A stretch of DNA of 64,000 bases from a virus. Lineage: Duplodnaviria; Heunggongvirae; Uroviricota; Caudoviricetes. The position numbers and the translations under genes are program-made. Below, in pieces: positions 3,123 to 62,738 of the stretch (position 1 is its first letter; each line of letters starts with the position of its first letter). Location: the IMG/VR virus record IMGVR_UViG_3300028454_000679, one strand, 5' to 3'. The notes under the pieces were generated by a model. The model searched no databases. It saw only the letters and a program-made list of their open reading frames with translations, and had not been told where the DNA came from.

Positions 3123-4802
3123 TTATCTATTAAAAATACAGCTTGTAGACACTATATCACCATTATCTTTAACTGTTTCCGGTAATGTTTTGGTTGGTAA
3201 GTCTTTTAACAAAGATCCCATAGCCTGCTCTGCATTCTTGTAATGGTCAATAGCTTTTAGAAATTCAGCAACATTTAAATAGACTAAGCTATCTGATGTC
3301 TTAAATGAGTCGCCTCTGTAAAGGACGCTCAAGCCATCACACCTACCATAATTTGATTCAATAACTTGGTTTATATGATTGTTCTTCAAGTTCTTGTATT
3401 GATTAACATGTGGAGTCTTGGTGTGTTTCACTTCAAAACCATAATGAGAATGTGTGTCTGTATTGTAAATGATCATGTCATACTCCCCCACGTTACTCCC
3501 GTCTATGAGAACTTCTGACTTAAATACATTATACCTCTTAGAATCAAGCGCATTCTTAGAATCAAATAATGTAATTTTTTCTAGCATGTCACCCAAAATA
3601 CTTTCTTCTAATTTTTTTGACAGTAAACGTTGTTCTGGTGGGCTTAATTCATTCAAATAAGGCGATTCCATATACATTTTCTGTGCTTCCAAAAGTTGAA
3701 AATATTTGATAGCGGGCTGTACGATGTGATACTCGTGCAATTCCTCCCAGTGATCCCACTTTCCTCTAATAATGTAATGTTTGTGCACATCTGTTGTTGA
3801 TAATAAATTAAGATAGATTAGTGCATCTCTTAATTCATCAACAAATACTGATGTTGCTGGTTTCGACAGATAGCATTCAGCATTTATTTTCTTAACATAT
3901 TCCAAATTTACGTCATCTCTATTCTGTGCTAGTTGGTTCTTAAATGCTGTGCTAAAACCACGATTATATCTTTTTAGTGGGAAATCAATACCGTAACGTA
4001 GAGGCATATTATTTATTTTTGATACATCGAACTTTCCGCTGTAGTCTTCCACAAAACGGTTAATGACTTGACTTATATCATCTTCGGTGTAGTCCATTAT
4101 TGAATCGTAGTTTGTTCGTTCTTTATTATACCTCTCATATCTTTTTAAACTCCTTGAAATATTACTAGACACAGCACTATCTAAATATCGTTTCTGCGAA
4201 ATAATATCATCTATCACATCGCTATCAGATAACCCGCGGTGCATTAAGCCACCATATCTAATATATTCATCAGTGTCCATCATATTCAAAACTCGACTGT
4301 GCTCCGCAAACGAAATATAAGTCATTTTAATGGTAGATGCCCTACCAAATAATGGATTATTTCCGGCAAGTAGCAAACCTAGTGAGTCTGTTCCAGCAAG
4401 TACAATAGAAATGCCCTTTTTAGCATAAAAATCAGCAAGTAATTCAGAATCATAAGTAAAATCTTCTACATTTGTTATTTCATCTAGTAGAATTATAGTC
4501 TTTCCATGTTCAATACATTCATCCATAGCATCATACACATCACTCATATGAAAAGATGTAACCAATCCATCTTCTGTCTTAAGTGGAAATTCCAAATGCT
4601 CTACACAATCACCATATTTATATTTGACCTGTCCTAGTAAGAATGTCTTTCCAGTACGGCGTAAACCATGCAATATGAGCACTTTACCATAAAGACATAA
4701 CTTACCATCTATAAACTCGCATACTTTGTCAAAGCAATCTCTTTCTTGCGCGGATTTCATTATTGCGTCATCATGGACAACTCTCTTTATATTTTGATTC
4801 AT
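3123..4802 (-). CDS. AAA ATPase (AAA_14/DUF4143-like) with C-terminal PD-(D/E)xK-like domain
   Basis: Walker A GLRRTGKT, Walker B ILLDE, C-terminal EYDMII...FEVKH; paralog of 7150 and 21563. Confidence 0.8.
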   Translation of the reverse strand: MNQNIKRVVHDDAIMKSAQERDCFDKVCEFIDGKLCLYGKVLILHGLRRTGKTFLLGQVKYKYGDCVEHLEFPLKTEDGLVTSFHMSDVYDAMDECIEHGKTIILLDEITNVEDFTYDSELLADFYAKKGISIVLAGTDSLGLLLAGNNPLFGRASTIKMTYISFAEHSRVLNMMDTDEYIRYGGLMHRGLSDSDVIDDIISQKRYLDSAVSSNISRSLKRYERYNKERTNYDSIMDYTEDDISQVINRFVEDYSGKFDVSKINNMPLRYGIDFPLKRYNRGFSTAFKNQLAQNRDDVNLEYVKKINAECYLSKPATSVFVDELRDALIYLNLLSTTDVHKHYIIRGKWDHWEELHEYHIVQPAIKYFQLLEAQKMYMESPYLNELSPPEQRLLSKKLEESILGDMLEKITLFDSKNALDSKRYNVFKSEVLIDGSNVGEYDMIIYNTDTHSHYGFEVKHTKTPHVNQYKNLKNNHINQVIESNYGRCDGLSVLYRGDSFKTSDSLVYLNVAEFLKAIDHYKNAEQAMGSLLKDLPTKTLPETVKDNGDIVSTSCIFNR

Positions 4803-4985
4803 TATATCACCTCGCTAAGATATTTAGCTTCAATGCCATAACCATTCACTTGTTGCTATCTTGATATTCTGTATATCCACATCCTTTAAATGTTACTACC
4901 CTATGTAGTCTCTCTGCTGGTTAAACATCATCTGTGAGACCATAGAGCATATTAATATCGTTTTCAATTGGCATACGGTTACCTC

Positions 4986-5977
4986 TTAAAATACTTTAGA
5001 GTGTTTTATTGTCTTTGCATTTCCTAGTACGTCCTCATATGCAGGCAAAAGGATATCCTCAAACCTAATGTGTAACTGTCGTTTGTAAATATGTTTTCTA
5101 ATATCTGAGCAGACTGTAATCTCCTCATTCCCTTTGGTTTTAAATGAAGTCGGTATTTCATCAATCATACTCTCAATAGTATCTAGTTGCTTCTGAACAA
5201 CAGGTACTACCTTAATCAGAGCTTTTTGCAATCTGGCATCATCTTTTAAAATACGCAGAAACTCTTTAGCTGGGTAACGATGATCTTTTTCACCAAAAGC
5301 AGTTATGACATTTGTAGTGTTTTGTCTAAAGTTAGGATTCAATAGTAGCTTCTGCAATCGGTCATCAGAAGCATTTGGTAAAAACTACTACCATTAGCAA
5401 ATACTGGTGCTAGACAATCTGTATTGTTCCTAGTCCTTAAAATTCCCCAGTTACCATTATTACGGTCATTGTTGTTTATTAGAATATCCACAATAGATTG
5501 CTCAAAGAACCTACTCTGAATACCATCTACATTTAGCAGTATTTGGTTCTGGTCCAAATGAGCAAGAAGTCTCTGTAAGTCAACTATATGGTTTGACGTT
5601 GAGCTAAATGTGGGCTGTGAAAGAAATTCTGCTAAACCACCCTCTGTGTGATTTAAAATGGTGCGAATTTCAAGTAACATAGCATCTACTGCAAAATCCT
5701 TGCAGGCTACTATGAGTTTATTATCACGTTCCCCAAGTACTGTTTCATGCACAGGATACCCAAGTATGTCATAAACATGACTGCCTATAAACTCTGACAA
5801 CGGTGCATTTGAATAGGAGGGTATACCCTTCCCATCAACACCCTGTAAATTCTTTGGATACTTAATCATCCACAATTCATCATTGAACAGTATACCAGTT
5901 TTATCACCTGCCAAGCCACCGTAAGTTCCATTTTTATAGCTCAGAGGACAATCATCAAAGTCTTCTATTTTAATCAT
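4986..5977 (-). pseudogene. HipA-like kinase, frameshifted
   Basis: Gly loop YGGLAG, lysine WMIKYP, catalytic NDRNNGN; one extra T in the T5 run at 5380-5384 would join the two ORFs (SFLPNASDDRLQKLLL); metal-binding Asp appears as Ala (APVFANG). Confidence 0.75.
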
Positions 5978-6085
5978 GGTACACCTCTTTACACATTCTG
6001 CTACTTTAATAATATCTATATAGCACCTATCATTGAAAGAAGTATTCACTTTCAGTCAGCATTGTATGCTGGTTGACTGCTGAGA

Positions 6086-7087
6086 CTATTTAGAAAAAGT
6101 TGAAGATGATTGAATAGTCTCTATACCTAACCCATTGTCCTGTAAAACTTCAATTTCTATACTCTGACCATGCTGGATTGCTAAGTTGTCTTCCACTCGC
6201 TTTAATAGGTGCTCAATCTTTTTAGAACCACTTACTGTATACCTTGATTCTAAAAGATCGATCAACTCATTCTTCTGCTCTGTGCTCAGTTTTAAATTCT
6301 GTGAGAATGTTACCAATGCTGAATCTACAACACCAATACTTATAAAGTCTCCCTGTATAAGAAAACTGTCTATAAGCAGTGAAAGAGTAGAAAATGTGTC
6401 TCTATCATAGGAAGTAAATGAAAGTTGCTGCAAGGCTGTGAATATTTCAATCTTACTAAAATCTAGGTCTAAATCACTGGTATAAAGGTCTCGTATATAA
6501 GTATCGCATGCATCTATCAAGGATCATTCTATCTCCCAATAACTAACGATATACACGCCATCTAAATACTTCTTACCAAGTAATATCACTGGAAATACCT
6601 TTAGTCCACGTTGAATAAATACCTTGATTGCATACTTATCACTAGTCTCCGAATACCCCTCTTCTTCCTCAGCGAAAACGGGTACATTTAAAGTTGTCCG
6701 GTTAGAAGGAATCTTATTTGTACTAGCAATTCCTCTTTTATTGCTCTCATGAAAGCTAACAATCACTTCTTCAAACTGCTTAGCATCCACCTTAATATAA
6801 ACTGAAACTCTGTAAAGGTTGTCAATGACGCAAATAACTCCCTTTTCACATTCCTGGTCTGATGCTCTTTCAATCATATAAGGTTGCAGATTAGATAGAT
6901 AATTCTTGACGAAAGACAATACATCACTACCGGAATGCTCTATATAAGCAAACAGACGTTTATTAAGTTCGCTCTTATGTTCTGTTTCATCAATTCTAAT
7001 CCTGTCAAGTTTACCCAATCTCCGTAGCTTTCGGCATATATCAATATTGTCAAAATTTACGATGTCACGCTGCTCTATTTTAGGCAT
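6086..7087 (-). pseudogene. Hypothetical protein interrupted by an in-frame TGA
   Basis: ORFs 6524..7099 and 6086..6520 share a frame: YWEIE-TGA-SLIDAC. Confidence 0.65.
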
Positions 7088-7149: not shown

Positions 7150-8769
7150 CTAGGAGATTTGACTATTATTAAAGGTACAAGAGGTCTTGGTAATGTGAGC
7201 ATTTGCAGAGTGGCTGATTAACATGTCCATTGTTGTCTGAATGTCTCTAGTCTCAAATATGGATGTAAGAAAATCAGTGATATTCAAATAATGAATTCCT
7301 TCCTCGGCTTTAAAGGATTTTCCATTATATAAAACGCAAGCACAAACTCTTTCCCCATAAAAGTAATCCATAGCAGACCTAAACTCGGGATTTATAAGAT
7401 GTTTGGTTTGTTCTGGATAAGGGTTTGATGTATGCTTAATCTCATAAGCGTAGTACTCATTGCTCTCTTTATTGTAAATAAGCATATCATACTCTCCTTG
7501 TACGACCCCATTAATTTTGAACTGTGGCTTTACTGCAAGATATTTCTCAGGTGATAAGGATCGCCGTGTGTCAAAGAGAACAATTTGTTCTGTCATATCC
7601 CCCTTTATTTTTTGGTCTAACTTTGACTTAATAATTTGTTTCGCTCTTTCATTAAATCTTTTGTAGTGGACCTCGTTTTCAATAAAATCAAGCCCTTGTT
7701 TAAGGTGATAATATTTTATGGCTGGTTGGATAACATAGGCATCATTTATGGACTTTTGCGATTCCCATTCGTCTGCATCAGTTTTTTCAAATTCAACTCT
7801 AGGGACTGTAGACAGTAAATTCATATCGAACAACATCTTTTGCAGTTCCTCTATCATAACCTTTGTTAGATGATGCTCTATCGTTACATCAGCATTTATT
7901 CTTTTAGCAAAATCTTCTGTAATTACACTCCGTTTTTTGATAACTTCATTCCTAATATCTATTGAAACATCCAGGTCATTCAATTGCGTTTCTGACATAG
8001 CAAGTGCACCGTTTACGGAAACGGACTTAAGTTTATCATTCACCTGTTTCTCGTTCCACTGACCACTATAAATTTCAACCATTTTCTCTACAATGCACAG
8101 TATTTCCTTGCTACTAAGTTCACTAAGAGAACTATCCTGAATGCTTCTTTGAATACTATTTGTTATGTTAGAACTTACAGCGCTGTCAAGATACTTACAA
8201 ACACTGTTATAGTCATTAACAATGCGACTCTCATGCTCACCCTTTCGCATAAGTCCGCCATATTCTATAAAATCATCCAAGGAATCTGTGTTTAACACTC
8301 TATTGTGCTCAGCGAAAGGAATGTATGTTGTATTAACGTGAGTAGTTCTGTCATATAGCTCTGTTCGCTCTGCATTTAAAAAACCTAAGGAGTCTGTTCC
8401 TGCCACTACAATTCGCATACCTCTTTTGGCAAATACATCTGAGAGGACGGATGCCTGCTCATCTAAATCACACACTCTGGTCAGTTCATCAATAAATACA
8501 TATTTTATATCTGACTTCGACTCTTCAATGAGTGCCCCAGTCAGAATTCTCATACAATCTCCGTCATTCATTTCATAGTAAGCGTAAGGTTCTTCCAGTG
8601 CATACATAACTTGCTCCATAATAGTTGTTTTCCCTGTTCTACGAAGACCATAAAGTATAAGTATTCTACCCTCATAACACTGATTACTATTTATAAACTG
8701 GACAACATCGTTATAGGCATTTCTTTGTCTGGGTTTGATATTTTCTGGTAAAATCTGTTTCCTTATCAT
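7150..8769 (-). CDS. AAA ATPase (AAA_14/DUF4143-like) with C-terminal PD-(D/E)xK-like domain
   Basis: GLRRTGKT, VFIDE, EYDMLI...YEIKH. Confidence 0.8.
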   Translation of the reverse strand: MIRKQILPENIKPRQRNAYNDVVQFINSNQCYEGRILILYGLRRTGKTTIMEQVMYALEEPYAYYEMNDGDCMRILTGALIEESKSDIKYVFIDELTRVCDLDEQASVLSDVFAKRGMRIVVAGTDSLGFLNAERTELYDRTTHVNTTYIPFAEHNRVLNTDSLDDFIEYGGLMRKGEHESRIVNDYNSVCKYLDSAVSSNITNSIQRSIQDSSLSELSSKEILCIVEKMVEIYSGQWNEKQVNDKLKSVSVNGALAMSETQLNDLDVSIDIRNEVIKKRSVITEDFAKRINADVTIEHHLTKVMIEELQKMLFDMNLLSTVPRVEFEKTDADEWESQKSINDAYVIQPAIKYYHLKQGLDFIENEVHYKRFNERAKQIIKSKLDQKIKGDMTEQIVLFDTRRSLSPEKYLAVKPQFKINGVVQGEYDMLIYNKESNEYYAYEIKHTSNPYPEQTKHLINPEFRSAMDYFYGERVCACVLYNGKSFKAEEGIHYLNITDFLTSIFETRDIQTTMDMLISHSANAHITKTSCTFNNSQIS

Positions 8770-9222: not shown

Positions 9223-9244
9223 AAGTCCACCTCTCTAAAGTTGT
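9202..9244. repeat. 43-nt direct repeat, copy 1 (copy 2 at 10651-10693)
   Basis: 41/43 identical; spans last codons, stop, RBS and next start. Confidence 0.85.
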
Positions 9245-10475
9245 TTAAAGATATTACTATTCTTTACGCTTGCTTTGCTCTTATTAGATTCCTCATTCAG
9301 CAGATAGATGCCTGATTGTTGCAAAAAATATATAGCCCTTCTGATCTCATCATTATTACTACTAATAGGAAATATCCCGGAACACTCATCGTTTTTCAAC
9401 ATTATGGCATACTTATTTGAAATCCGCATAGTGCATAACTTCCTGCCGTTTATATCGAAGTCTTGCTTTCTATACAACGGAAAACCATGAATAGGCTTTA
9501 TATACTGCTTATATAAATCATATAACTGCGAACTGTCTTCAATGTGAGCTTTTTGCAATGGAAAAATTCTTAGTAATGCTTTTATGAAGATTTTGTTATA
9601 TCTTATCTTAATACTATCAATGTAAAACTGTTTACGCTTTTCCGATAAAAATGGTGTGGCTCTTATAATTTCTTCTATTTGAACTATATTTATCTTCGGT
9701 ATCATGCAAACTAAAGCACTGTCAATATTGGTATGAGATTGCATGAAATAATCAGCATATCTGATTTTATTCTTTTTACCATTGCTGGAATTCTCACACA
9801 GCACACTGTCAACAGATAATGCTGTTTGGTTAACATTTATAGTATCCAGTTCACTATCATCCACTTCTAGAGATAGAGAAGATCCACAATCATATACTGG
9901 GGCAATCCGCTTAAAAGTAGACAGGTCATCCAAAATAATACCAATATTCCCAGGATGTCGATCAGTATTACCTATTAAAGTATCTAGAATAAATAAGTCA
10001 TAAAAGAAATGTCTTAAGTCCTTTAGGTCCTCTTCTGTCATTCCAGTTCTATCCTTCACCAACATAACAGCTGTTCCATTTCAGAGAACGTTATCCTGCC
10101 TTGAGAGTCCAGAACATCTGATCCTAGAACGGCCTTTTCTAAGTCACCCAGAATTTCCCCAGCACCTCTAAAGTCCTTACAGAGACATACAATCTTGGTC
10201 ATTATCTGGTTCCTACTGTTTGGAGTATCGTATTCCCAAAGAGATACATCCTGTGTAGGAAATCCCATACTTTTACTTATTTTACACCCAACATATTCTG
10301 AGAATGGATTATTCTGATATGGGCAAAGTTCTTTTCTTTTGTGCTCCCTAGTTGGGTCAGGTTTCTTCAGAAGATACTTTTCGTTATTCTCAAATATAAT
10401 AGTTTCTTTCTTTTCCGAGCCACCATACTCATTAAGCAACACTCTAGCTATATGATTATTTAACTTTTCATTCAT
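9235..10475 (-). pseudogene. HipA-like kinase split into N-lobe (10056..10475) and C-lobe (9235..10065) ORFs
   Basis: YGGSEKK loop and KYLLK in the first ORF; NTDRHPGN and APVYDCG in the second; ORFs overlap by 10 nt (ATGTTGGTGA). Confidence 0.7.
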
Positions 10476-10530
10476 ACTTGTTATCTCACATATAATCTCA
10501 GAAACATTGATATATTCTCCAACTACTTCA

Positions 10531-10559
10531 ATTCTAACAACTTATTGTTGGAAAGTAAA
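10531..10559 (-). promoter_or_regulatory. sigmaA-type promoter (diverged repeat copy)
   Basis: Minus strand TTTACT-N17-TAGAAT next to the shared tttctttgtagccaagtgatg block. Confidence 0.5.
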
Positions 10560-10591
10560 GGTTTCTTTGTAGCCAAGTGATGATAGATAAA

Positions 10592-10621
10592 GGGTGTATA
10601 GGATTTGACCCCTATACACCC
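10592..10621 (-). terminator. Repeated terminator, family A (perfect copy)
   Basis: gggtgtatagg-atttgacc-cctatacaccc. Confidence 0.8.
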
Positions 10622-10650
10622 TGGTTAGTTTTGATTTGAATAGAGAGTAA

Positions 10651-10693
10651 TTTGTCTAATAAATCTGCCACAAGTCCACCTCTCTAAAGTTGT
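10651..10693. repeat. 43-nt direct repeat, copy 2
   Basis: Matches 9202-9244 at 41/43. Confidence 0.85.
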
Positions 10694-10845: not shown

Positions 10846-10997
10846 TAAAACAACACCTCCATTGCCCTACAATATCCATTATACATAATACCTCAAATGG
10901 CGCCTTTGAATGCTTAAATAGTGTTGCAGGCAGTTGCGTAAGGATGTATGACAAGTTTGTCTACTCAAATCTTTGTGCAGTAGACACATAAATACAA

Positions 10998-11033: not shown

Positions 11034-11609
11034 CTACTCTTCGGAGTCATGATCTACTTCCCCGACTGTGTATGGGTCATACTCTGTAAGTTTGATAAGT
11101 GGGTCAAGCGCATCTGCAAGTGCTTGTGCACCTATTGCAATCTCCTCACGCAACTTCTTTTCTCTCTCAGTGTAGTGACCATCCCAATTAGGTAAAGAAT
11201 ACGTATTATAGTGAAACTTGGTTATAATTGGTGCGATCACTTCACGCCCTGTTGCCTTATTAACAACTGTACGCTCTAGACTCACCTCAACCTCATCAGC
11301 CAATACTGCCAATGCCTCGTAAATATCGGTTATAGCTTTTCTTGTGGATGCTAAGCAAGCAGCTTCAACCCAAGATTCACCTTCCCGATAGTCCTCACTG
11401 AGAATAGTATCGGTTTTAAAAATTGGATAGTACTCACACCCCGCAACCTTATTTATGGTATTATAAACTTTCTCTAATTTCTGATGGTCCAGTGTATTGC
11501 ACATTTGCTTTTGAATAATGGACTCCTTTAATGCTGCAAGAGTCACATTATGTTGCTTCTTATTTGCTACTTTAGCTTTTTTAAAAACGTCGCTATTGCT
11601 TATTGTCAT
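11034..11609 (-). CDS. Hypothetical protein
   Basis: 191 aa, GGAGGT RBS, own terminator. Confidence 0.7.
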   Translation of the reverse strand: MTISNSDVFKKAKVANKKQHNVTLAALKESIIQKQMCNTLDHQKLEKVYNTINKVAGCEYYPIFKTDTILSEDYREGESWVEAACLASTRKAITDIYEALAVLADEVEVSLERTVVNKATGREVIAPIITKFHYNTYSLPNWDGHYTEREKKLREEIAIGAQALADALDPLIKLTEYDPYTVGEVDHDSEE

Positions 11610-11767: not shown

Positions 11768-12919
11768 TTAATAAGTGCGAAATATACCACTCTGGTTTAC
11801 TATGTTCTCGCCAGTTGCGATACTACCACTACACCTTGGAACCCCCATTTTCTCAAAATTAAAAGGTATTATAACATTAACAAAATTATCCATAATGTCA
11901 AAAGCCTGTTTTCCGTAATCCTTTATAATAAGTGGGATACCATGTCCGGTCTGCTCTACATATCCAAGTTGTCCAAAAATCTTTTGGAGTTTAGCATTTA
12001 CTGGTCGACTTATTCCTCTGTAAAACTCATCTTTCTCTAAATCAACTGGCAATCCACCAGTTGAAATAATTTCTATCCTATTAGAGAAAACATAAACTGC
12101 AGGTGGGTTCAGCCGTTCCCACTTTGTATGAATACAAGCGTTTAACCAAGCCTCTCTAAAGGCTGACTGACTAAACAATGATTCTTCTACACGTCTCGCT
12201 GAATCAAGATTAACTTTTGTTTCGTTAATAGACTCCACATAATCCAAAACTTTATTCACAGCCAGGATAAGACATGTTTCACCAAATTCTTTTCTCATAG
12301 TCATTTTAGTCTTATCCCTACCTTCAAAAGTTACTACTTTTATGGATACATCATTTGAATCCGCCAATAGAAAAGCCATTAGATTGTAATTACCATCACT
12401 GTTTCGTAAACCAAGGTTTTCTTCAAAGGTCTCCTGACTGATTGTAAGACCTGCATTTGCATACTCCATTCTTAATTTGTTAAAAGTTAGGGATTGCGTT
12501 TGTGCAGGAGTAATAGTTATGGTATCGCTTGAAACTTGCTTATCTAGGAATTCCTTAAGCATTGATGGATTTAAGATTAAATCCTCATCAGCTGATCGTA
12601 TATAATAACGACCATAGGCAGAGTAAGGTCTTTCTGTTCCATGAACATCAATCTTGATCACATCCCTATCATCAAGTAAGCTATGTTCAATTGTTGGTAT
12701 AACTTGAGGAGAAATATGTCTGCTAATAGCCTGAGATATGTCCCTAAGCGTCCTCTCCCCTATTGGTTGCCCAAGTACTTCGCCATCATCTTTAACACCA
12801 AAGTACAGTGTACCATATCCGTGTTTGTTCAACATAGAAGCTAAGGATATTATACCTTTGTTTAATTCCCCTGTTGTTTTTTTAAATTCAAGCTTTTCTG
12901 TTTCTACACCAATATTCAC
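11768..12919 (-). CDS. AlbA_2 (Schlafen-like) DNA-binding domain plus HATPase_c_4 (RecG-C-like) protein
   Basis: ETEKLEFKK...SLASMLN...GTLYFGVKDDG N-terminus; REAWLNACIH...RIEIISTGGLP...EQTGHGI C-terminal half. Confidence 0.8.
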   Translation of the reverse strand: MNIGVETEKLEFKKTTGELNKGIISLASMLNKHGYGTLYFGVKDDGEVLGQPIGERTLRDISQAISRHISPQVIPTIEHSLLDDRDVIKIDVHGTERPYSAYGRYYIRSADEDLILNPSMLKEFLDKQVSSDTITITPAQTQSLTFNKLRMEYANAGLTISQETFEENLGLRNSDGNYNLMAFLLADSNDVSIKVVTFEGRDKTKMTMRKEFGETCLILAVNKVLDYVESINETKVNLDSARRVEESLFSQSAFREAWLNACIHTKWERLNPPAVYVFSNRIEIISTGGLPVDLEKDEFYRGISRPVNAKLQKIFGQLGYVEQTGHGIPLIIKDYGKQAFDIMDNFVNVIIPFNFEKMGVPRCSGSIATGENIVNQSGIFRTY

Positions 12920-21525: not shown

Positions 21526-21585
21526 ATAGGGGGTGGTTTGGTTCCCTATTTAATGGAGGCCTCTACTGCTGAAAGATTGATGATT
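21526..21585. repeat. 60-nt direct repeat, copy 1 (copy 2 at 23096-23155)
   Basis: 41-nt perfect core 21536-21576 = 23106-23146, covering the stop codon and last codons (FQQ*). Confidence 0.85.
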
Positions 21586-23020
21586 GCTTAACATCAGATT
21601 TACTCACCTCGTACCGTTGTTTTAAACCCTCAAAATTATAATACTTATATAATTCATCCGTTTGATTGACAACCGCAACCTCTCTGCCGGAGGTATGGGT
21701 TTGCCAACTGGATTTACCTGGGTGTACAATAAATCTTCCGCAGATTTCGCTGTCCGGAAATTTTTCTCTTAATGCAGTATCTACTCTACCGTTTACGATT
21801 GACCAATTCTCATTCTGTACATTAACCTTGTAACGATGTTTACACTCAATAAGGTAGAACTGTTTTTTGCAAGTATTGTCATTACTCACAATGACTATAT
21901 CAACCTCGTAGTTATTGGATTCTTTTGACTCGATGTAGTAAATAGAATCCGCCGCCTGTTTCTTAAAGAACAGATCAACCATACAGTTTGCCTCATATAC
22001 AAGTCCAAGGATACTATTCATATTATCATAGTCGGGGAAAATTGCCTTAATAAACTGGTATGTTAGTGATGGGTTCACAACATAGGTTTTGTATCCTTTA
22101 AATAAGCCATCTTCTGACCGCTCCGAATGTTCAAGCAGATTCGGTACTTTCACTAAAACCCCCGCACAACATAGTAATTCCGCAACACCTTGCAGTTCAC
22201 TAAGACTTATTTCAACTCCTTCAAGATCAATCCCAAATCTTTGAAGTGCCTGTTGGGTATCAATGTTGTCAGCGCTTTTTAAAAGCGAAGGATTATTTCT
22301 CATTAAATCCCAGATAGCACGATATAGTAACGTGTAAATAATGTTGGAAATTTTCGTGTCATCAAACAATAGTTTATAATCCCTTGCATATCCTTTCAAA
22401 TTATCAATGATAGCAGACTCAATATAGGTGGTCATGGTGTATTTATTCTTAATAACGTAGTTCTCAAAGATACCGCCTTGAGTTAAGTATTCATCACAAA
22501 CAATCTGTGTCATAGATTTATTATATATCCTACAGTATTCCGGAAAAGACATGTGTGTGGTGTGAAGTGTAATCGCACGGTGAATAAGAGGACCAGATTT
22601 TAATGCTTCTAAGCTTAAGGATTCTGTTCCGGTTACAATGATTCTTTTCCCGCGATTAGCAAGTGTATACAAGAAACCATCCAATTCAGAATCCTTTCTT
22701 TTTTCAACCCAGGTGTACTCATCTAAAACAATAACGTTTTCTTTTCGTGATTTTAAAACATCAAGTAATTCATCAGCTGTGATGCTAACTCCTTGCTCCA
22801 TAGTAATATACACTGCATCTCTATTCCGAATCGCTTGTAAAACACCAACACTCTTACCAGTCCCGCGTAAACCGCTTACAAGAAGGACTTTACTTAATGA
22901 TGACTTAATGTACTTTTCAACCTCAAAGACAAAGTCACGTTTTTCCATAATCGGAAAAATTTCATTATCTTCTAAGTATTTATCATAATGATTTTTATCT
23001 ATAATCAGCATATGCATCAT
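21563..23020 (-). CDS. AAA ATPase (AAA_14/DUF4143-like) with C-terminal PD-(D/E)xK-like domain
   Basis: GLRGTGKS, IVLDE, YEVDIVI...LIECKH. Confidence 0.8.
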   Translation of the reverse strand: MMHMLIIDKNHYDKYLEDNEIFPIMEKRDFVFEVEKYIKSSLSKVLLVSGLRGTGKSVGVLQAIRNRDAVYITMEQGVSITADELLDVLKSRKENVIVLDEYTWVEKRKDSELDGFLYTLANRGKRIIVTGTESLSLEALKSGPLIHRAITLHTTHMSFPEYCRIYNKSMTQIVCDEYLTQGGIFENYVIKNKYTMTTYIESAIIDNLKGYARDYKLLFDDTKISNIIYTLLYRAIWDLMRNNPSLLKSADNIDTQQALQRFGIDLEGVEISLSELQGVAELLCCAGVLVKVPNLLEHSERSEDGLFKGYKTYVVNPSLTYQFIKAIFPDYDNMNSILGLVYEANCMVDLFFKKQAADSIYYIESKESNNYEVDIVIVSNDNTCKKQFYLIECKHRYKVNVQNENWSIVNGRVDTALREKFPDSEICGRFIVHPGKSSWQTHTSGREVAVVNQTDELYKYYNFEGLKQRYEVSKSDVKQSSIFQQ

Positions 23021-23095: not shown

Positions 23096-23155
23096 ATAGG
23101 GAGTAGTTTGGTTCCCTATTTAATGGAGGCCTCTACTGCTGAAAGACTGATGACT
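23096..23155. repeat. 60-nt direct repeat, copy 2
   Basis: See 21526-21585; offset 1570 bp. Confidence 0.85.
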
Positions 23156-24227
23156 GGTTTATTGTACACTTATCATGTGTTAGTGACATTATTTTGTTCC
23201 ACCTTGCACTACACTCTTCTGGAATTGTATTATTCCACTCAATTGTATGCAAATGTCCAATATTAGCAATCGTCTCAATTACTGTTTTTCCAAATGGAAC
23301 ATAGATCAAATCATCAAATTCATCTATCCCTCCTAAATCGAAAGCTAAGAAAGCCTGGTTATGATCAAATAAAGGTGCAACACCTTTTACACTATTAGTG
23401 CTGTTATCCACAAAGAATCCAATATTACCCAAGTGGCGGTCAGTGTTTGCAATCAAATAGTCAATCACTGCCATATTTGCAAAATCTGACACATACAGAC
23501 TACGTAACTTTTCATACAGTGCCTGTGGTAAATCCTCTGCGGCTACAAACGAAGTATTATCATCTGTCATGCAGGCACACTTACAACAAAGAAAACCATC
23601 CAATTTTGCAGATATGTACTGCACGTGTGAGACATTAGTTTTATCCAATAATTCTGAAGCCTTTAATTCAGCTTTGGTGTTCACAAACCCAGACGTAGAG
23701 TCTGACTTGTACATGAACAACCTATCCCCCTCTCGCTTCCAACATTTTCTAAACATCCCAGATGTTGTTAATTCTGCATCCATCAAACTATGTTCGACAC
23801 TTACAGAGCGGCCTCGCAATGCTATATCAAATACAACATCAGATAAATACCTATGTCTGATATTAACATCAGCAAATTGTATACACTCGTTGTCCCCTTT
23901 CACCCAAATATTATCAAGCACTGATACACCTCTACAGGATAATGATAATTGAAACATTGTCTCAGTACTTGCTTTTTGTGAAGCTCCAACTGAATGTAAG
24001 ATAGCTTTGGCGTTCTCTCTACTCAGTAGGAGTGTTCTATTTGCGAAGAAATAGCGCAAAGTGTCGTAATTGCGTAATATTTCCTTAGCTGTTATCAAAG
24101 TTTTAGAGTTTTTGATAATACTTTGGAGCTGCAGTGGCAAGAATTTGAAATTCAGAATTTCCACAGTGTAGGATTCATCATCAAAATATAACACCTCTCT
24201 ATCACCATTCATCAATACCATGTGCAC
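23133..24227 (-). CDS. HipA-like kinase (intact)
   Basis: TTSGMFRKCW, FMYK, NTDRHLGN, APLFDHN. Confidence 0.8.
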   Translation of the reverse strand: MHMVLMNGDREVLYFDDESYTVEILNFKFLPLQLQSIIKNSKTLITAKEILRNYDTLRYFFANRTLLLSRENAKAILHSVGASQKASTETMFQLSLSCRGVSVLDNIWVKGDNECIQFADVNIRHRYLSDVVFDIALRGRSVSVEHSLMDAELTTSGMFRKCWKREGDRLFMYKSDSTSGFVNTKAELKASELLDKTNVSHVQYISAKLDGFLCCKCACMTDDNTSFVAAEDLPQALYEKLRSLYVSDFANMAVIDYLIANTDRHLGNIGFFVDNSTNSVKGVAPLFDHNQAFLAFDLGGIDEFDDLIYVPFGKTVIETIANIGHLHTIEWNNTIPEECSARWNKIMSLTHDKCTINQSSVFQQ

Positions 24228-44301: not shown

Positions 44302-44670
44302 TCACTTACCAAAAATATTAGATTTTCCTAAAACACCAAGAAGTCCAGACTTACTGCTTGAGCTCTCAGCGGTTGCGGATTCCATCTTTTCTGATGCACG
44401 CTTCTTCTTAACACGATTGCGTATCTTTTTAAAGATCTTAAAAAGTAAAACGAGTATAAGAGCTGCAGCAAAAATATAAAACAGGAAACCAATAAAGTTT
44501 AGAGCAGTTCCAAGCAACTTAAAAGGTGCACCTGCAACTGCTCCAACTAACTTACCAACAACAGGTACACTTCCGCATGCAGAATTGATTCCTGCACTCA
44601 TGGCAAGAAGTTTAGACCCTGCAAACTTACATGCACCTGTAACAGCTGTGCCTATTATGAGATGTTTCAT
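44302..44670 (-). CDS. Small membrane protein
   Basis: Hydrophobic Gly/Ala-rich segments, basic cytoplasmic tail ending KSNIFGK. Confidence 0.7.
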   Translation of the reverse strand: MKHLIIGTAVTGACKFAGSKLLAMSAGINSACGSVPVVGKLVGAVAGAPFKLLGTALNFIGFLFYIFAAALILVLLFKIFKKIRNRVKKKRASEKMESATAESSSSKSGLLGVLGKSNIFGK

Positions 44671-45872
44671 GATACCACCTCTTCAACTTTCTCACATACT
44701 TTTATAGTTGCACCCGCAATAGCACCTGTAATAAGACTCTGGTCGCACGCAAACCATAAAACATCACATGTCAGACCATCGAATGCATCCTTGGCGATGT
44801 ATGACACACTCGCAGGTATAATAAGCTTTGAGCATGTAACACCTTTAAATGCACCCCTGTCGATATGAGTAATAGTCTTAGGTAAGTAAACATAGTCCAA
44901 TTTCAGCTTAGTGCCTGTGATACTTTTCATTGCATCAGAAATAGAAGTTGACATAGCACCGCCTAAAATGCCCTTGACAGGAATATTATCAACAAAGGCA
45001 GGTATCATAAGCTTATTAGTTCTCATATTTGCCTTTATAACATACAACTCATTATCCACATAACCAAAGGTAAAACCATCTGCAGTAAAGGAGTCTTTAT
45101 TAGCTACCCACTTATTCTTCTTTGCAATAGCGGAAGTTACAAGATCCTCTGCTAGCGTTGTAGTGGTTATCTTAGCATGCTGCACCTTCGGAGCATCAGA
45201 AGGTGCCTTAGGTTTGGAGGATGCAGGTGGCTTTGGTGTGGTACTAAAGTAAGCCTTGTCCCTCTGCTCTAACTTAGTAACACGATTAGAGACATCGCCA
45301 ACAGCTGCGGCTAATGCACCAATCTCTTCGTCCTCTTGTATCTTCTTTACAGAGGCATCAATTCGTTCCGCCTGACTCATACGCCTCTTTGGTTTTGAGT
45401 CCAAAACAGTATTCTGTGTTTGTGCGGTTTGATTCTGCTTTAATTGCTTTTCCATAAACTCAATCTTTAAGTCCTTAGACTTTAATTGCGTTTTCAGAGC
45501 CTCATTAGTAGCTTTTAGTTCATTAATAGTCTGCTTTGATTCCTCATAGAGTCTCTTGTACATATCTGCTTCACTAGAATCAGAGGACTCTTTGGAACCT
45601 TCAAGAACATCACTAAGACTTGGAAGCTCACTTAAATTAGGTTTCAATGCTGGTGCACTCTGTTCTGTGACTGATTTGGCAGGATGTGATGTATCAGTAG
45701 ATTGAGGTGTAGTAGGCTCTGAGGACACCTGTTTAGGCTGAGCACTACTAAAAACACTTGAACCCTTGGCGGTTTGCCCCTGTACACTGATAGCCTGTCT
45801 TTTGGCATTAAATTCTAAATCCTTAAGATCTACGTCACTGAAAATATCAGTTGTTGAAATAGATGTATCCAT
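44667..45872 (-). CDS. Coiled-coil protein with C-terminal BspA-type leucine-rich repeats
   Basis: YLPKTITHIDRGAF and IIPASVSYIAKDAF repeats; Ser/Pro-rich and heptad regions. Confidence 0.7.
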   Translation of the reverse strand: MDTSISTTDIFSDVDLKDLEFNAKRQAISVQGQTAKGSSVFSSAQPKQVSSEPTTPQSTDTSHPAKSVTEQSAPALKPNLSELPSLSDVLEGSKESSDSSEADMYKRLYEESKQTINELKATNEALKTQLKSKDLKIEFMEKQLKQNQTAQTQNTVLDSKPKRRMSQAERIDASVKKIQEDEEIGALAAAVGDVSNRVTKLEQRDKAYFSTTPKPPASSKPKAPSDAPKVQHAKITTTTLAEDLVTSAIAKKNKWVANKDSFTADGFTFGYVDNELYVIKANMRTNKLMIPAFVDNIPVKGILGGAMSTSISDAMKSITGTKLKLDYVYLPKTITHIDRGAFKGVTCSKLIIPASVSYIAKDAFDGLTCDVLWFACDQSLITGAIAGATIKVCEKVEEVVS

Positions 45873-45873
45873 A

Positions 45874-47070
45874 TCACAAAGCTCCTTCCTTGTTAACATA
45901 CTCGGTGTATGAAGGCACTCTATGCTTCTTCACCTTCCCTTGTACAACTAGGTAACGTGTTTTAAGATTTAAGATTTCCCTAGTTGTGTGTAATGCTTGT
46001 GATTCTTCTGGAAATTCTAAATAAAACCTTACATACTTTGGACTCTGTGCAACAGTTGGTATTTCCCATGCTTGTATAGAACTCTCTGTTCTACCAAAGT
46101 TCACGACCTCATCCATCTCCGTTGTAAAGTATTCGTACTCATCACTGTTTAAATACAAGTGCCGCTGAGCATCTGTTAGCTTATTACCTAATACTTCATT
46201 AAACCCGTTTGTTTGGATTTTCATATCCTGTTTGGTGTACATGTACCCCTTCTTCATATCAAATCGAAGAACTTTAGCCTTTTTAGTAGGTTTGGAGATA
46301 TACTTGATACGTTGTCTAAAGCAAATTGCATTAAGGTCTGCAGTACTGTCGCTATAGAGTGAATCATACTCTAGCTTATCAAACCTTATTGAGTACTTTG
46401 CACCTGAAACACTCTTAACCACTACTGGTTTTGATGCATTAAGAATACCTCCGGCATGCTTAGCCTTCTTAAAGATACTGTGAGCTATGTATACATCATC
46501 AATCTCCAAACCATCGCTGGAAGAAAACTTCAGTACGATTTTAGTACCTTTATTCAGCTTATATGTTGGCTGCATCGCCCTCTCAATAGTCACATGTTTT
46601 ATACCATTCAAAAACTCTGCTGACTCTGGAAATCCAGACCACCCAACGTACGCAGGCTTGCCCACAACCTTGCCCTTGCTATTCATAAGATATGGGTCGG
46701 CATAAATAATACAATCGCCACTTTGCTCTAACTGTTCTGTTGGAGTTATAGTAAAGTTGATTGCATAACTGTGGTTCACACTATTCTTAACTGCTAACTT
46801 ATTTGTCCAATCCTGTATGTTAAGTTTTGTTAATTGATTTATCTGTAAAAATGCTATAACCTTACCTTTAGACAGTAAAGGGATATTCTCGTTATACTTA
46901 TATACTACCTTATCAGTTGACTTATAAGTAAACTGATAAGATTCAGTAACATCAGTTGTAGCTACTTCTGGCTCTGGTGCAGGCTCTTCTGCATCTTTTT
47001 TACTGCCAGGTAAAGAACACGCTGTCAGTAAAGTGCAGGCAGCTAAAGCACACAATAAAACTTTCTTCAT
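45874..47070 (-). CDS. Lipoprotein
   Basis: MKKVLLCALAACTLLTAC lipobox. Confidence 0.75.
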   Translation of the reverse strand: MKKVLLCALAACTLLTACSLPGSKKDAEEPAPEPEVATTDVTESYQFTYKSTDKVVYKYNENIPLLSKGKVIAFLQINQLTKLNIQDWTNKLAVKNSVNHSYAINFTITPTEQLEQSGDCIIYADPYLMNSKGKVVGKPAYVGWSGFPESAEFLNGIKHVTIERAMQPTYKLNKGTKIVLKFSSSDGLEIDDVYIAHSIFKKAKHAGGILNASKPVVVKSVSGAKYSIRFDKLEYDSLYSDSTADLNAICFRQRIKYISKPTKKAKVLRFDMKKGYMYTKQDMKIQTNGFNEVLGNKLTDAQRHLYLNSDEYEYFTTEMDEVVNFGRTESSIQAWEIPTVAQSPKYVRFYLEFPEESQALHTTREILNLKTRYLVVQGKVKKHRVPSYTEYVNKEGAL

Positions 47071-54976: not shown

Positions 54977-56690
54977 TTAAAGCCCTCATAATAACACCAG
55001 CTTTTACTCTACCTGCACGATACTCGTCACACAACTCGCAGATATAATTATACTTATCCTCTGGCAATGAAGCTGCCATTTCAAGCCATCCTGCGATACT
55101 ATGTTCCTTCCGAGCGTCCTTAGAAGACTTTGCACCTTTCAGGTCAAGGAACATTTCTTTCTCCTGTCCGTCAACAGCTACAAACAGCCGAAGAGTGTTT
55201 GTAATATCAACAGATACCTTAACTCTGATAGGAACTGTCTGTTTTGCCTGAGGCTTAATACCTTCAATATGAAGAACTCCTAACTGTGTACAAGCCTCCG
55301 GTCGCTCTGAGCCACCCTGTAAAACTGTAACATCAATAGCAGTCTGATTATCTCTGTTGGTGGTAAACATTCTCTCGCCGGAGCAAGGTATTGGTGTCTT
55401 TCTTGGAATTATAATATTATTGGATTCTGCAGATGCAATTCCAATAGCCTGCGGAATAATATCAAATACATGAGCATCACCTGTACCAAACTTAACTGTC
55501 TTACCAAACACAGCTGCTCCACCAGAAACAGATAAGTCTGGCTCAAAGCCACTGTTAATCTCGATATCAGGATACTTCTCTGCAAGCCATGCACGCAAGA
55601 GTGGGTGCTTTGTAGAGCCACCTACAAGAACAAGCACAGACGGTTTCTGCTCATTATCCTTAATAACTTTGTCAACAAGTGCAATAGTCTTATCAAAGGT
55701 CGGTTTAAGTGCAGCTGCTAAATCCTCTGCGGAGATATCAATAGTAACCTCCACATGCTCTCCATTCTCATTTACAAAGGAAGACGTGTTCCTAGAAATC
55801 TTCGCCAAATCCTGCGGTCCAGTTAAACTATTCTTAATAGTAACAAGTGCTGCTCTTACCTTAATCTGAAAGTCCTTAGGTGTACTGTAAAAATCAATAT
55901 CGTATCTCTGTTTTAAACGGTTGACATAGATATCTACTAAATTATTGTCAATGTCATCACCGCCCAGACGAGTATCACCATTGGTATCATACACGGTAAT
56001 AACACGCTCACTAGAACTATCAGAAGACAATCCGTAAATATCGTCGATACTTGAAACATCACTACACTCAATACCAGCTAAGGTTACATCAAATGTACCT
56101 CCGCCAAGGTCATAAAACAGTGCTGTGATACTCTTGGTGGTTGGGTACAGCATAGATGCGGCAGTAGGCTCATTGATAATATTGATAGGATTCAAACCTG
56201 CCAAAAGGCACGCTTCCTTAGTATTATCTCTACCAATCTGTGAAAAGTAGGCAGGCACTGTAACAATAACATCTTTTACCTCTCCATACTTACCATCTGT
56301 CTTATCAACAAGTCCACGAAGGATCTTAGCTGATACCTCAACAGGGGACAATGTGACACAATCCCCGTTGTCATCCAAAGTCACGGTGTAGTCATCATCT
56401 TCCATATGACGCTTGATAGAGTAAACCACGTTAGGTTCATTTTTATGGGCATATGCTTCGTCTCCCACAATAAATTCACCATTACGATACATAACGCAGC
56501 TTGGCATTGTCATCTTACCACTATTAAGCTTAATAGTATCTGCAGTGTTACCTGAACGCACCACACTAATTGCAGAGTTGGTGGTTCCAAGGTCTATACC
56601 AAAAACTGGTGTTTTATCTTTTGCAGCACTACCTGCAGCTTTGATGGTATCTGTAAACACACTTGATTTAGAAACTCCTGACTTTTTCAT
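54969..56690 (-). CDS. dnaK: Hsp70/DnaK-family chaperone (diverged, short lid)
   Basis: GIDLGTTNS, ITVPAYF-like IVTVPAYF, NEPTAA, YDLGGGTFD, LVGGST, FTTNRDNQ; start at ATG 56690. Confidence 0.88.
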   Translation of the reverse strand: MKKSGVSKSSVFTDTIKAAGSAAKDKTPVFGIDLGTTNSAISVVRSGNTADTIKLNSGKMTMPSCVMYRNGEFIVGDEAYAHKNEPNVVYSIKRHMEDDDYTVTLDDNGDCVTLSPVEVSAKILRGLVDKTDGKYGEVKDVIVTVPAYFSQIGRDNTKEACLLAGLNPINIINEPTAASMLYPTTKSITALFYDLGGGTFDVTLAGIECSDVSSIDDIYGLSSDSSSERVITVYDTNGDTRLGGDDIDNNLVDIYVNRLKQRYDIDFYSTPKDFQIKVRAALVTIKNSLTGPQDLAKISRNTSSFVNENGEHVEVTIDISAEDLAAALKPTFDKTIALVDKVIKDNEQKPSVLVLVGGSTKHPLLRAWLAEKYPDIEINSGFEPDLSVSGGAAVFGKTVKFGTGDAHVFDIIPQAIGIASAESNNIIIPRKTPIPCSGERMFTTNRDNQTAIDVTVLQGGSERPEACTQLGVLHIEGIKPQAKQTVPIRVKVSVDITNTLRLFVAVDGQEKEMFLDLKGAKSSKDARKEHSIAGWLEMAASLPEDKYNYICELCDEYRAGRVKAGVIMRALNE

Positions 56691-56942: not shown

Positions 56943-57479
56943 CTACTTCGTAAAGATTGCAAGCTCTGTTACTCGTCTATTCTCGATTCCCTTAAAGGTA
57001 AATGTCTCAGGGCTGCCTGGTGGCATAGAATAGAACTTACACATTGTTAAATCAATAAATGGAATAAAGTAAATGTCAGACCCCGGTGCTTCCCCTACAT
57101 GTAATGATTGCTGAAGCAGACGCTGAGTTATAGAATCATCAGGGTCCTGCTCCAAAGCATTAGATGCCTCCAAAAGTACATCTGTACGTGCTGAGACAAC
57201 CATATCATCCGGAATGGATAACTGGAACAATACACTATCTTTGTAATTGTAAGCAATACCTGTTCCAACAATATCATCAAGTGTAGTAATTCCAGAGTTA
57301 GCAGTAAGGCAGGCAATAGGTAAATTCTCGAATCCAACATTATCAATCATAAATTCTCGAATAACGGAAATAACTTTTTCTCCCATGTTAGGAATAGAAT
57401 TATACTCCGGTTGCTGCCCTGTAATAATCTGTTGTGCTATTGACACTGGGACAACAGCAACTATATTCATATCAGACAT
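56943..57479 (-). CDS. Hypothetical protein
   Basis: 178 aa, AGGAGG RBS. Confidence 0.7.
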   Translation of the reverse strand: MSDMNIVAVVPVSIAQQIITGQQPEYNSIPNMGEKVISVIREFMIDNVGFENLPIACLTANSGITTLDDIVGTGIAYNYKDSVLFQLSIPDDMVVSARTDVLLEASNALEQDPDDSITQRLLQQSLHVGEAPGSDIYFIPFIDLTMCKFYSMPPGSPETFTFKGIENRRVTELAIFTK

Positions 57480-61280: not shown

Positions 61281-61572
61281 AAGTAAACTCCGGGAAAACT
61301 TCTTCTACAACCTTTCGTATCTCTGGATAGGCACACACAATATAATTGAACATATCCATATAGGTTGAATTCTCTGACAAAATATTTCTAAAGCACTTTG
61401 CAATATCACCCTCTGGGAAGAAGTCAGGAAGGTTGTAAAGCATCTTAAATTGACACAATTCCTTTTTGTTCCTAAATATCTCATACTCCTCACCCTTGAG
61501 TTTAAGCACCATATCGAACTTTTGTATTCTGACAAGACTGTAGTACTCTTGTATAATATTAAATATTTTCAT
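61273..61572 (-). CDS. Hypothetical protein
   Basis: Start moved to ATG 61572 behind GGAGGT; 99 aa. Confidence 0.6.
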   Translation of the reverse strand: MKIFNIIQEYYSLVRIQKFDMVLKLKGEEYEIFRNKKELCQFKMLYNLPDFFPEGDIAKCFRNILSENSTYMDMFNYIVCAYPEIRKVVEEVFPEFTYV

Positions 61573-62011
61573 ACATACCTCCAATCTGTAATTTGAGACA
61601 CTTGAAAAGTTCTCCCTCAAGAATCTCACATTTACAAGCATGCACAAGTAAAATATCCCATAAGAACAAGTACGAGAATGTTCCCTTGTATTTTGGAACA
61701 CTCTCAATAAGCTTATCAATAGTCTCTTCGATGCTATTTAAGCTCTCTGCAAACTCTTTAGGGTAAAAAGAGAAGTCAAACAATGGCTTGGGGTAAAGCG
61801 TAAGTATCCCATTCATAAAAGCCACATGAGAAATAACGCTGTAAAGCTTGTCCTCATCCACAAATTTAAAATCCAACTTTGTCGGATCCTGCACCCTGAC
61901 GCACTCTTTAGTACTAATACCAACAGCTTCACAAAGACACGTATGCACATCCTTAAGGTAGTGCATACGGAACTCTAAGAGCTGCTCTTCAAATTTATTG
62001 GAAAATTCCAC
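61559..62011 (-). CDS. Hypothetical protein
   Basis: 150 aa, short overlaps with both neighbours. Confidence 0.6.
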   Translation of the reverse strand: MEFSNKFEEQLLEFRMHYLKDVHTCLCEAVGISTKECVRVQDPTKLDFKFVDEDKLYSVISHVAFMNGILTLYPKPLFDFSFYPKEFAESLNSIEETIDKLIESVPKYKGTFSYLFLWDILLVHACKCEILEGELFKCLKLQIGGMYENI

Positions 62012-62738
62012 TTTGATTCACCCCAAGACTCTCTGCAGCTTCTGTCTCTTTCTCACTCTGTATAGCACTTTCATGAATACTGAGTAAGTCCTCTGCAGTA
62101 ATAACACCATTTACAATATCCTGCACCTGCTCTAAGGTTAATAAGTTCTCATTGATAAGAGAAGCCTCCGGTCCCATAACACCGTAGAATTCTTCCTCGT
62201 ACATTGGGTAAATCTCGAACAAGTCGAATGACTTTCTGCACCAACAAATCTCCTTGAGGATGGTGTCCATAAACTCTTTAATATCCAAATCCGCTACAGT
62301 AGGAAGAACACAACTCTCAACAAACGGCTGTTCTGCTAAAAAGCCTTCCAGATGAAAGTCGAAATACATAACGGTTGCGTAAACACCACATGCATACATT
62401 GCCAGGTTCGTAAAGTCAGGCAAATTCTTAGTATTCAAGCTAAATGCCTTACCTAACTCTTCCTTGAACAGTTCAAGCTTCGGACGCATAGACTGTAAGG
62501 TGTGATTAAGTATATTGCTAGTTGAGATAAATCTTCCACAGTACAACTCAAAAACATCCATATCAATGTTTATCTCATATGACAAATCCAAAATGCTCTC
62601 ATAGTCCTCTTCTACACAAGAGTCTACTAGGCACTGAAGCAGCTCCCTTGTATCATTCAAAGACTTAAACATTTGAGTAAAGTCAATATCCTCTTTATAA
62701 ATCCAGTTAGAATGCTCATGACTGATTGTCGTTATCAT
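61995..62738 (-). CDS. Hypothetical acidic protein
   Basis: Start moved to ATG 62738 behind GAGGAGG; ends VNQSGIFQ. Confidence 0.7.
   Translation of the reverse strand: MITTISHEHSNWIYKEDIDFTQMFKSLNDTRELLQCLVDSCVEEDYESILDLSYEINIDMDVFELYCGRFISTSNILNHTLQSMRPKLELFKEELGKAFSLNTKNLPDFTNLAMYACGVYATVMYFDFHLEGFLAEQPFVESCVLPTVADLDIKEFMDTILKEICWCRKSFDLFEIYPMYEEEFYGVMGPEASLINENLLTLEQVQDIVNGVITAEDLLSIHESAIQSEKETEAAESLGVNQSGIFQ

Follow-up and report, generated by a model that had tools for sequence, protein, structure and literature searches.

A shared seven-residue peptide at the ends of unrelated proteins in a giant plasmid-like element of gut Clostridia, possibly a docking motif for the replication machinery

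Why should ATPases, kinases, a nucleotidyltransferase and proteins without a known family all end in the same short peptide? This question is raised by a 64,000-nucleotide (nt) stretch of DNA (IMG/VR record IMGVR_UViG_3300028454_000679; hereafter, the window), which is part of a giant plasmid-like element of gut Clostridia. One window protein recurs letter for letter on a 234,325-bp metagenome contig in ENA, ERZ27247021 k141_88331, and a near-identical contig of 234,317 bp is present at JGI as 3300021319 Ga0214520_100095. Matches to the element were sought in collections of plasmids, phages, viral contigs and species genomes, and none were found. Our analysis covered ~80 kb of the 234-kb element (about a third) and roughly half of a related element described below; gene calls in the fetched loci were partly simple open reading frame (ORF) calls.

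Occurrence and origin of the tails

A first-pass annotation of the window, made from its letters alone, had listed 11 C-terminal tails, and all 11 read as written when their codon coordinates were checked. The strict pattern [IVLT]..S.[IVLT]F matched 17 times in the 63 ORFs of the window (19,743 amino acids, aa), with 11 matches within the last 16 residues, two at extreme N-termini and four at internal positions. In the comparison with shuffled tails that the annotation had proposed, 0.21 matches were expected against the 11 observed, with a maximum of 2-3 in 2000 shuffles; random residues drawn from the same proteins and internal windows gave expectations of 0.20 and 0.16, respectively. These enrichment odds are inflated because the pattern was defined on the same window data, and independent checks were sought for this reason. 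Two further C-terminal matches (ILKSGTF-Q and VHASSVF-KDRV) lie on the same element in the next 7 kb past the window end, and in the 8 kb before the window start we found no strict tails and two near-matches only, among 20 small ORFs. At least 13 otherwise unrelated proteins of the element end with the seven-residue peptide, and two begin with such a peptide.

Nearly all window genes lie on the minus strand. Three AAA_14 ATPases and three or four HipA-like kinases, two of which are each divided over two genes, occupy the accessory zone at the lowest coordinates (~1-25.6 kb), together with an AlbA_2/HATPase_c_4 protein, a DUF6036 nucleotidyltransferase and a surface protein of 2193 aa. The middle zone is a Tad-like operon, and the zone at the highest coordinates is a replication module with a sigma-like protein, a Zn-ribbon primase, an Hsp70, a DnaB-like helicase and an SNF2 helicase. 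PADLOC assigned the AAA_14 ATPases to the candidate defence family PDC-S01 and the kinases to PDC-M03A. For cytoplasmic accessory proteins longer than 120 aa, the earlier count of nine tailed members stands, out of a total of 16 rather than the 12 originally given; one further protein of this class has an N-terminal copy. Secreted proteins are without the tag, as had been noted. Where two genes form a unit, the downstream one carries the tail; in split kinases this is the C-terminal fragment. Two HipA-like (PDC-M03A-like) kinases appear to be split into overlapping genes, at 4986-6049 (236 and 123 aa) and at 9235-10475 (139 and 276 aa).

The peptide is placed at a flexible terminus, either within the first 12 residues or 0-9 residues from the C-terminus, with 0, 1, 2, 3, 6 or 9 residues following the Phe of the C-terminal tails. 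The residue ahead of the first hydrophobic position is mostly an I, T or V as well, which extends the conserved stretch to about eight residues, with a strand-like look.

The proposal that the tails are conserved at the level of protein held up: the Ser is encoded by AGT, AGC, TCT and TCA, and the underlying DNA is unlike except for one repeat. This direct repeat of 74 nt (21516-21589 and 23086-23159; 91% identical) covers the last nine codons, the stop codon and 47 nt downstream of two unrelated genes (21563 and 23133), and is possibly a vehicle for copying a tail together with its terminator onto another gene. The only pair that shares its tail by paralogy consists of the AAA_14 ATPases at 3123 and 7150; since these are full-length paralogues, about ten tails, not eleven, are independent.

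The peptide is also retained among orthologues. V-x-x-S-x-[IV]-F is kept by two orthologues of the core 263-aa protein (55-57% identity), which end in VGTSEIF-R and VNMSDVF-K although the linker ahead of the motif has diverged, and both the Ser and the Phe are invariant in four orthologues, including one at 20% identity. Outside the elements the tail is absent from the nearest homologues in the two families that we compared, the AlbA_2 protein and the HipA-like kinase, as the first-pass annotation had suggested checking. None of the 120 nearest AlbA_2 homologues (61-73% identity, mostly ~432 aa) has the tail, and the strict tail occurs in none of the 150 nearest representatives of the kinase encoded at 23133..24227 (~29-48% identity).

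Nearly all of the AlbA_2 homologues listed end in a winged-helix domain. The 432-aa AlbA_2/HATPase_c_4 protein is very common in Clostridia, and the window copy is truncated: homology of the 383-aa window protein to its 432-aa relatives stops at residue 357, and the winged helix-turn-helix (wHTH) domain is gone. No remnant of this domain was found downstream of the gene in any frame. The tail lies at the position of the inter-domain linker of one relative, P0035 (GENIVNQSGI versus GENTENEVNI). From the homology stop, the lack of a remnant and the linker-site position of the tail, we infer that the gene was truncated and its linker remodelled into the motif. In the families compared, these alignments indicate that the tail was added and not inherited.

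Lineage versions of the motif in related elements

A search with the Hsp70 of the element returned ~40 element-type relatives at 34-47% identity, encoded on contigs as long as 415 kb, and after them canonical DnaKs. At the N-terminus, nearly all element-type Hsp70s are extended by a segment containing ...x-x-x-F-[GD], which canonical DnaKs lack, and the Phe of this N-terminal motif is invariant in 33 of the 33 element-type Hsp70s aligned. In the AlphaFold2 (AF2) model, Hsp70 residues 1-25 are disordered (pLDDT <50), suggesting that the peptide is free to bind in trans. The ten Hsp70 neighbourhoods that were fetched show a conserved synteny of a GreA_N-like gene, the SNF2 helicase, the DnaB-like helicase, a 180-200-aa protein, the Hsp70 and the Zn-ribbon primase. 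F-anchored termini are found on the 180-200-aa protein in all ten elements (orthologues of the 178-aa window protein in nine other elements all end in such a tail), on members of the 263-aa protein family in seven and on the primase in several, and a small HRDC protein has the F-anchored ends KLDLF, QKMEAF and KKLNIF. The motif had been inferred to be an element-specific tag on acquired cargo. This view is not supported, as the F-anchored motif is family-wide and resides mainly on core replication proteins (the Hsp70, primase parts, a 5'-3' exonuclease, a clamp-loader-like AAA+ protein and the HRDC protein).

Each lineage has its own version of the motif: S-x-[IV]-F in the clade of the window, [ML]-x-[AS]-F elsewhere and I-T-x-F in one element (L008), with most reading [LMI]-x-[AS]-F. 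We compared three orthologous families, namely the Hsp70 N-terminus, the 180-200-aa protein and the 263-aa protein family. The position at -3 from the Phe is S or A in 9/10 in the window clade versus 0/17 elsewhere (M, L, I or V instead), and I, V or L directly precedes the Phe in 10/10 versus 3/17. As the window and two related loci (L011 and L079) form one clade in the Hsp70 tree, the switch is best described as one lineage in which three unrelated proteins changed alike, rather than as many independent events. The 178-aa protein of the window has an intermediate version (VTELAIF).

The family-wide form can be written [QK]-[LMI]-x-[ASL]-F, as in QMNLF, KLDLF, QKMEAF and KKLNIF. The first-pass annotation knew of no description of the motif, which needs qualification: the family-wide form is close to the published bacterial beta-clamp-binding consensus QL[SD]LF, or more generally QxxLF (PMC11952451). 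The S-x-[IV]-F version of the window lies further from that consensus.

Further examples were noted in single elements. An Hsp70 at 10001-11740 of locus L077 has F-anchored peptides both N-terminally (KKLDAFGD) and C-terminally (HRNVFGDVK). A Fic-domain protein at 2154-3044 of L078, a further tagged gene of toxin type, ends in the tail version of that element (...KPLNAF), and a PI3/PI4-kinase-like protein in L006 shows a comparable stretch, YSVF, close to its N-terminus.

A related element is present in NCBI assembly GCA_041223785.1, named Lachnospiraceae bacterium 47-T17, and in this assembly only among 401 genomes of the family to which the assembly belongs. Its contig (C12) is 103 kb long with 37% GC versus 44-54% for the other contigs sampled, and the link to the host is co-assembly. 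C-terminal [ML]-x-[AS]-F tails are carried in this element by a 5'-3' exonuclease, a DNA_pol3_delta2 AAA+ protein, an HRDC protein, a Toprim-like protein (a label read from its DNDEAG motif, not from a Pfam match) and others, and N-terminal copies by the Hsp70 and a PDDEXK_2 protein. C-termini of the element are 4-5 times richer in the pattern [MLI]x[AS]F than internal positions of the same proteins or the C-termini of 368 host ORFs, and S-x-[IVL]-F is absent from the C-termini of the element. A search of PHROGs with ten unannotated proteins of the element gave no match.

The 47-T17 element carries a clamp-loader-like gene, and the single clamp gene of the assembly is the chromosomal dnaN beside dnaA. 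Pfam models for DNA_pol3_beta (N, central and C), gp45-slide_C and PCNA_N, run over the whole assembly, recovered only this dnaN, beside one chance match to a host lipoprotein on a contig of 54% GC, and a DnaN profile matched none of 299 element ORFs. A 199-aa neighbour of the clamp-loader-like gene was considered as a clamp and rejected as a look-alike of the RNA polymerase alpha N-terminal domain; it adjoins the 5'-3' exonuclease gene and the clamp-loader-like AAA+ gene on C12 (loci L018-L023; e.g., 60364-60963).

Candidate partners of the peptide

The peptide may be a disordered, Phe-anchored short linear docking motif at a free chain end ([IT]-[VIL]-x-x-S-x-[IVL]-F, with 0-9 polar residues behind it), which would tether its carrier to one shared partner in the DNA-replication machinery of the element. 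A short linear motif read by one pocket is suggested because the peptide is disordered, occurs at either end of many unrelated proteins, is under selection and changes in step; a coordinated switch in three families would be expected if all were read by one pocket. A reader at the replication fork is suggested by the replisome carriers in relatives (5'-3' exonuclease, AAA+ delta2-like protein, HRDC protein and primase parts). The whole family of giant elements would place an F-anchored handle on its replisome proteins, and the lineage of the window, with a version of its own, may have spread this handle to acquired defence- or toxin-like proteins such as the AAA_14 ATPases, the HipA-like kinases, the AlbA_2 protein and the nucleotidyltransferase. 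The carriers in the window are the Hsp70, core proteins without an assigned function and nine defence- or toxin-like proteins.

As the reader we rank the host beta sliding clamp first because the family-wide form of the motif is clamp-like and because the 47-T17 element has a clamp-loader-like gene in an assembly whose only clamp gene is the chromosomal dnaN. The clamp would be loaded by the clamp-loader-like proteins of the element, and the tails would be divergent clamp-binding motifs. We put forward a shared docking partner, with the host clamp as its putative identity, as a tentative reading that falls somewhat short of probable. Docking on a hub protein had been among the options offered in the first-pass annotation, and it fits best of those.

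Beta-clamp-binding motifs are used by insertion sequence (IS) transposases (PMC4549789), by a group II intron protein (PMC6698660) and by MuC of phage Mu (PMC12867686). Like these motifs, the element peptide is short, lies in a disordered end or loop, has a hydrophobic residue and Phe at positions 4-5 and occurs on many unrelated proteins; QMNLF, KLDLF and QKMEAF of the relatives fit well. That it can sit at an N-terminus or at differing distances from the C-terminus speaks for the clamp as well, the clamp-binding motif being N-terminal in Hda and C-terminal in polymerases. In phage T4, tails of gp43, gp33 and gp55 dock on gp45, and archaeal and eukaryotic PIP boxes are comparable. There, polymerase, flap nuclease, clamp-loader and transcription proteins all reach a single ring through hydrophobic-aromatic tails at their C-termini, but the sequence pattern differs and no gp45- or PCNA-like gene was detected in the 47-T17 assembly. 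In phage T7, the helicase-primase gp4 and the single-stranded DNA-binding protein (SSB) gp2.5 dock on the family A polymerase gp5 through acidic C-terminal tails ending in Phe. The likeness is that replisome proteins carry a terminal Phe behind a linker, polar or acidic, and that the element uses a family A polymerase for replication; however, in T7 the Phe must be the last residue and a run of acidic residues is required, whereas in the window as many as nine residues come after the Phe and the linker is only mildly acidic.

Several observations weigh against the host clamp. Gln at clamp-motif position 1, four residues before the Phe, is found in only 4 of the 11 C-terminal tails and neither of the 2 N-terminal copies, the others having T, N, K, H or S. 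Position 4, directly before the Phe, is mainly Ile or Val in place of Leu: in the window it is I, V, L or T (Leu once), with the Phe present in all copies, and in relatives it is A, S, L, I or V with single odd residues (K and Y). QxxLF offers no equivalent of the invariant Ser, which comes two residues behind the Gln position, or of the hydrophobic residue six places ahead of the Phe. Most window carriers are defence- or toxin-like enzymes with no known business at the clamp. A predicted complex of a DnaN dimer with the last 48 residues of the 263-aa protein scored 0.00, but the clamp was a stand-in from another host (47-T17) and the score is taken neither for nor against the clamp. An unrecognized clamp or receptor may sit outside the portions of the two elements that were covered, and residence of the 47-T17 element in that host is not proven, given its difference in GC content. 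The switch of version was a single lineage event, in one clade of the Hsp70 tree, so that Fisher tests on the counts given above exaggerate the independence of the cases. Recombination can copy tails between genes, which would yield uniformity within an element without any receptor and therefore counts against a reader encoded by the element as well.

The cleft of the clamp is highly conserved, and lineage versions with a coordinated switch fit a co-evolving receptor encoded by the element better. On that alternative, the motif would still be a docking motif, but its reader would be an element protein such as the DnaB-like helicase, the family A polymerase or an unrecognizable clamp or adaptor. 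Each lineage having its own version and three families switching together in one clade would be explained; the split primase parts are tailed, and primases normally dock on the helicase; and the elements encode their own replisome and RNA polymerase, with most of their proteins matching no family. The Phe-ending tails of T7, which dock on a family A polymerase, provide a parallel for such a reader. The nearly canonical clamp motifs of some versions (QMNLF and KLDLF) speak against it, and we regard it as possible but on the unlikely side. A fuller form, which we consider distinctly doubtful, is a private address system, in which a hub encoded by the element (for example, a clamp or adaptor too divergent for profiles) would read a co-evolving F-anchored terminal tag. 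Captured defence or toxin genes would then have been plugged into the replication machinery by trimming a targeting domain and by evolving or copying the tag, as the AlbA_2 gene and the 74-nt tail-plus-stop repeat might illustrate.

Readings that do not involve a docking partner at the fork fare worse. The peptide could be a client tag, serving as a degron that a protease of the host or of the element reads, or as a recognition motif of the element Hsp70, which lacks a J-protein; HscA, which reads LPPVK on IscU, provides a precedent for the latter. Many carriers are toxin- or defence-like and their levels might need control, a specialized Hsp70 is conserved in every element, and the motif is extended, seven residues long and has hydrophobic anchors. 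Such a role is nevertheless improbable, since the Hsp70 itself is tagged N-terminally in all 33 relatives and replisome proteins of relatives share the tag. The Hsp70 was also considered as the reader of its own N-terminal motif and rejected, as the AF2 model shows no docking in cis. Known terminal degrons differ between N- and C-termini and need the very end of the chain; the peptide does not keep to a fixed position at the free carboxyl end, as SsrA-type degrons, PDZ/Tsp ligands and HbYX motifs do, and its variable offset and two N-terminal copies tell against an end-dependent form of the degron that had been raised earlier. The same two features argue against a signal for translocation or transfer through a Tad-like, type VII-like or conjugative machine, the option favoured by the first-pass annotation, and we consider this quite improbable. 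In its favour, the carriers are cytoplasmic, the secreted proteins are untagged, transfer of plasmid primases is known, and the last seven residues of mycobacterial CFP-10 (LSSQMGF), a type VII secretion signal read by the EccC ATPase, are of similar flavour, being Ser-rich with hydrophobic positions and a final Phe. However, the carriers include large folded ATPases, the Hsp70, a flap exonuclease and the clamp-loader-like protein, and the tail-bearing genes cluster with replication genes and not with the Tad operon. The Phe is often not terminal, WXG and YxxxD/E features are absent, and the carriers are enzymes of 122-573 aa with other folds, not small WXG100- or LXG-type helical hairpins with a signal at the extreme C-terminus. 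Finally, a peptide without function, arising from chance, composition, paralogue ancestry or a DNA repeat at gene ends, is hardly credible. Paralogy and the 74-nt repeat account for one pair of tails each, but about ten independent tails stand against 0.2 expected, and their codons differ. Orthologues keep the motif, its Phe is invariant in 33 Hsp70s, and the tail is absent from 270 outside homologues; chance is excluded by the counts.

If one partner reads all the tails, a seven-residue peptide would define the interaction network of an undescribed family of 190-330 kb elements in gut Clostridia, and would mark which of their uncharacterized genes work at the replisome. Docking of this kind would also show how an element domesticates defence-type genes, here candidate defence ATPases, HipA-like kinases and a Schlafen-like AlbA_2 protein without its DNA-binding domain. 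Whatever the hub, cargo tethered to the replication machinery would sit on DNA where replication starts. Should the partner be the sliding clamp, candidate defence proteins would be tethered to it, for which we know of no earlier case. The coordinated change of the motif in one lineage would provide a natural experiment on the co-evolution of a hub and its clients, and bench work may be possible because the assembly that contains a related element, Lachnospiraceae bacterium 47-T17, has a name resembling that of a cultured strain.

Carriers and neighbouring genes

Coordinates of all copies in the window are collected in Table 1, in which Hsp70 residues are numbered from the ATG used by the public gene call.

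Table 1. Copies of the peptide, variants and related features in the window
Peptide or feature	Position	Strand	Carrier or remark
VSTSCIF (+NR, stop)	3132..3152	-	AAA_14 ATPase 3123..4802, PADLOC PDC-S01-like
IKHSKVF (stop)	4989..5009	-	123-aa protein 4986..5357, probably C-terminal piece of a split HipA-like kinase
Probable N-terminal piece of split HipA-like kinase	5339..6049		236 aa, overlapping the 123-aa partner
IQSSSTF (+SK)	6095..6115	-	144-aa protein 6086..6520, without known family
TKTSCTF (+NNSQIS)	7171..7191	-	AAA_14 ATPase 7150..8769, full-length paralogue of 3123..4802
VKNSNIF (+KQL)	9247..9267	-	HipA_C-like kinase piece 9235..10065, PDC-M03A-like
ISNSDVF, N-terminal copy, residues 3-9	11583..11603	-	191-aa protein 11034..11609
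VNQSGIF (+RTY)	11780..11800	-	AlbA_2/HATPase_c_4 protein 11768..12919
VKQSSIF (+QQ)	21572..21592	-	AAA_14-DUF4143 protein 21563..23020; in 74-nt repeat 21516-21589
INQSSVF (+QQ)	23142..23162	-	HipA/PI3_PI4-like kinase 23133..24227; in repeat copy 23086-23159
LGTSNLF (+TESKESKSH)	24379..24399	-	DUF6036 nucleotidyltransferase 24349..25128
LGKSNIF (+GK)	44311..44331	-	122-aa hydrophobic protein 44302..44670
ISTTDIF, near-match (Thr for Ser), residues 14-20	45840..45860	-	LRR_5 protein 44667..45899
VSKSSVF, N-terminal copy, residues 6-12 from ATG at 56690	56655..56675	-	Element Hsp70
VTELAIF (+TK), variant tail	56952..56972	-	178-aa protein 56943..57479
VNQSGIF (+Q)	62001..62021	-	Core 263-aa protein 61995..62786

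A conserved protein of 336-359 aa is encoded right after the primase, in the window at 53389-54420. It has no Pfam match and shows RuvC-like motifs (GIDQSTSCTG ... E ... DSFDALGIL) and a conserved C-terminal [FL]PxNE[ED]VYGE, and orthologues are found in L006, L008, L010, L011, L013 and L077-L080. This protein was considered as a clamp and rejected, its motifs being RuvC-like and not clamp-like. At 43300-45899, the LRR_5 protein, the tailed 122-aa hydrophobic protein, a lipoprotein and an S26 signal peptidase are encoded in a chain of overlapping genes.

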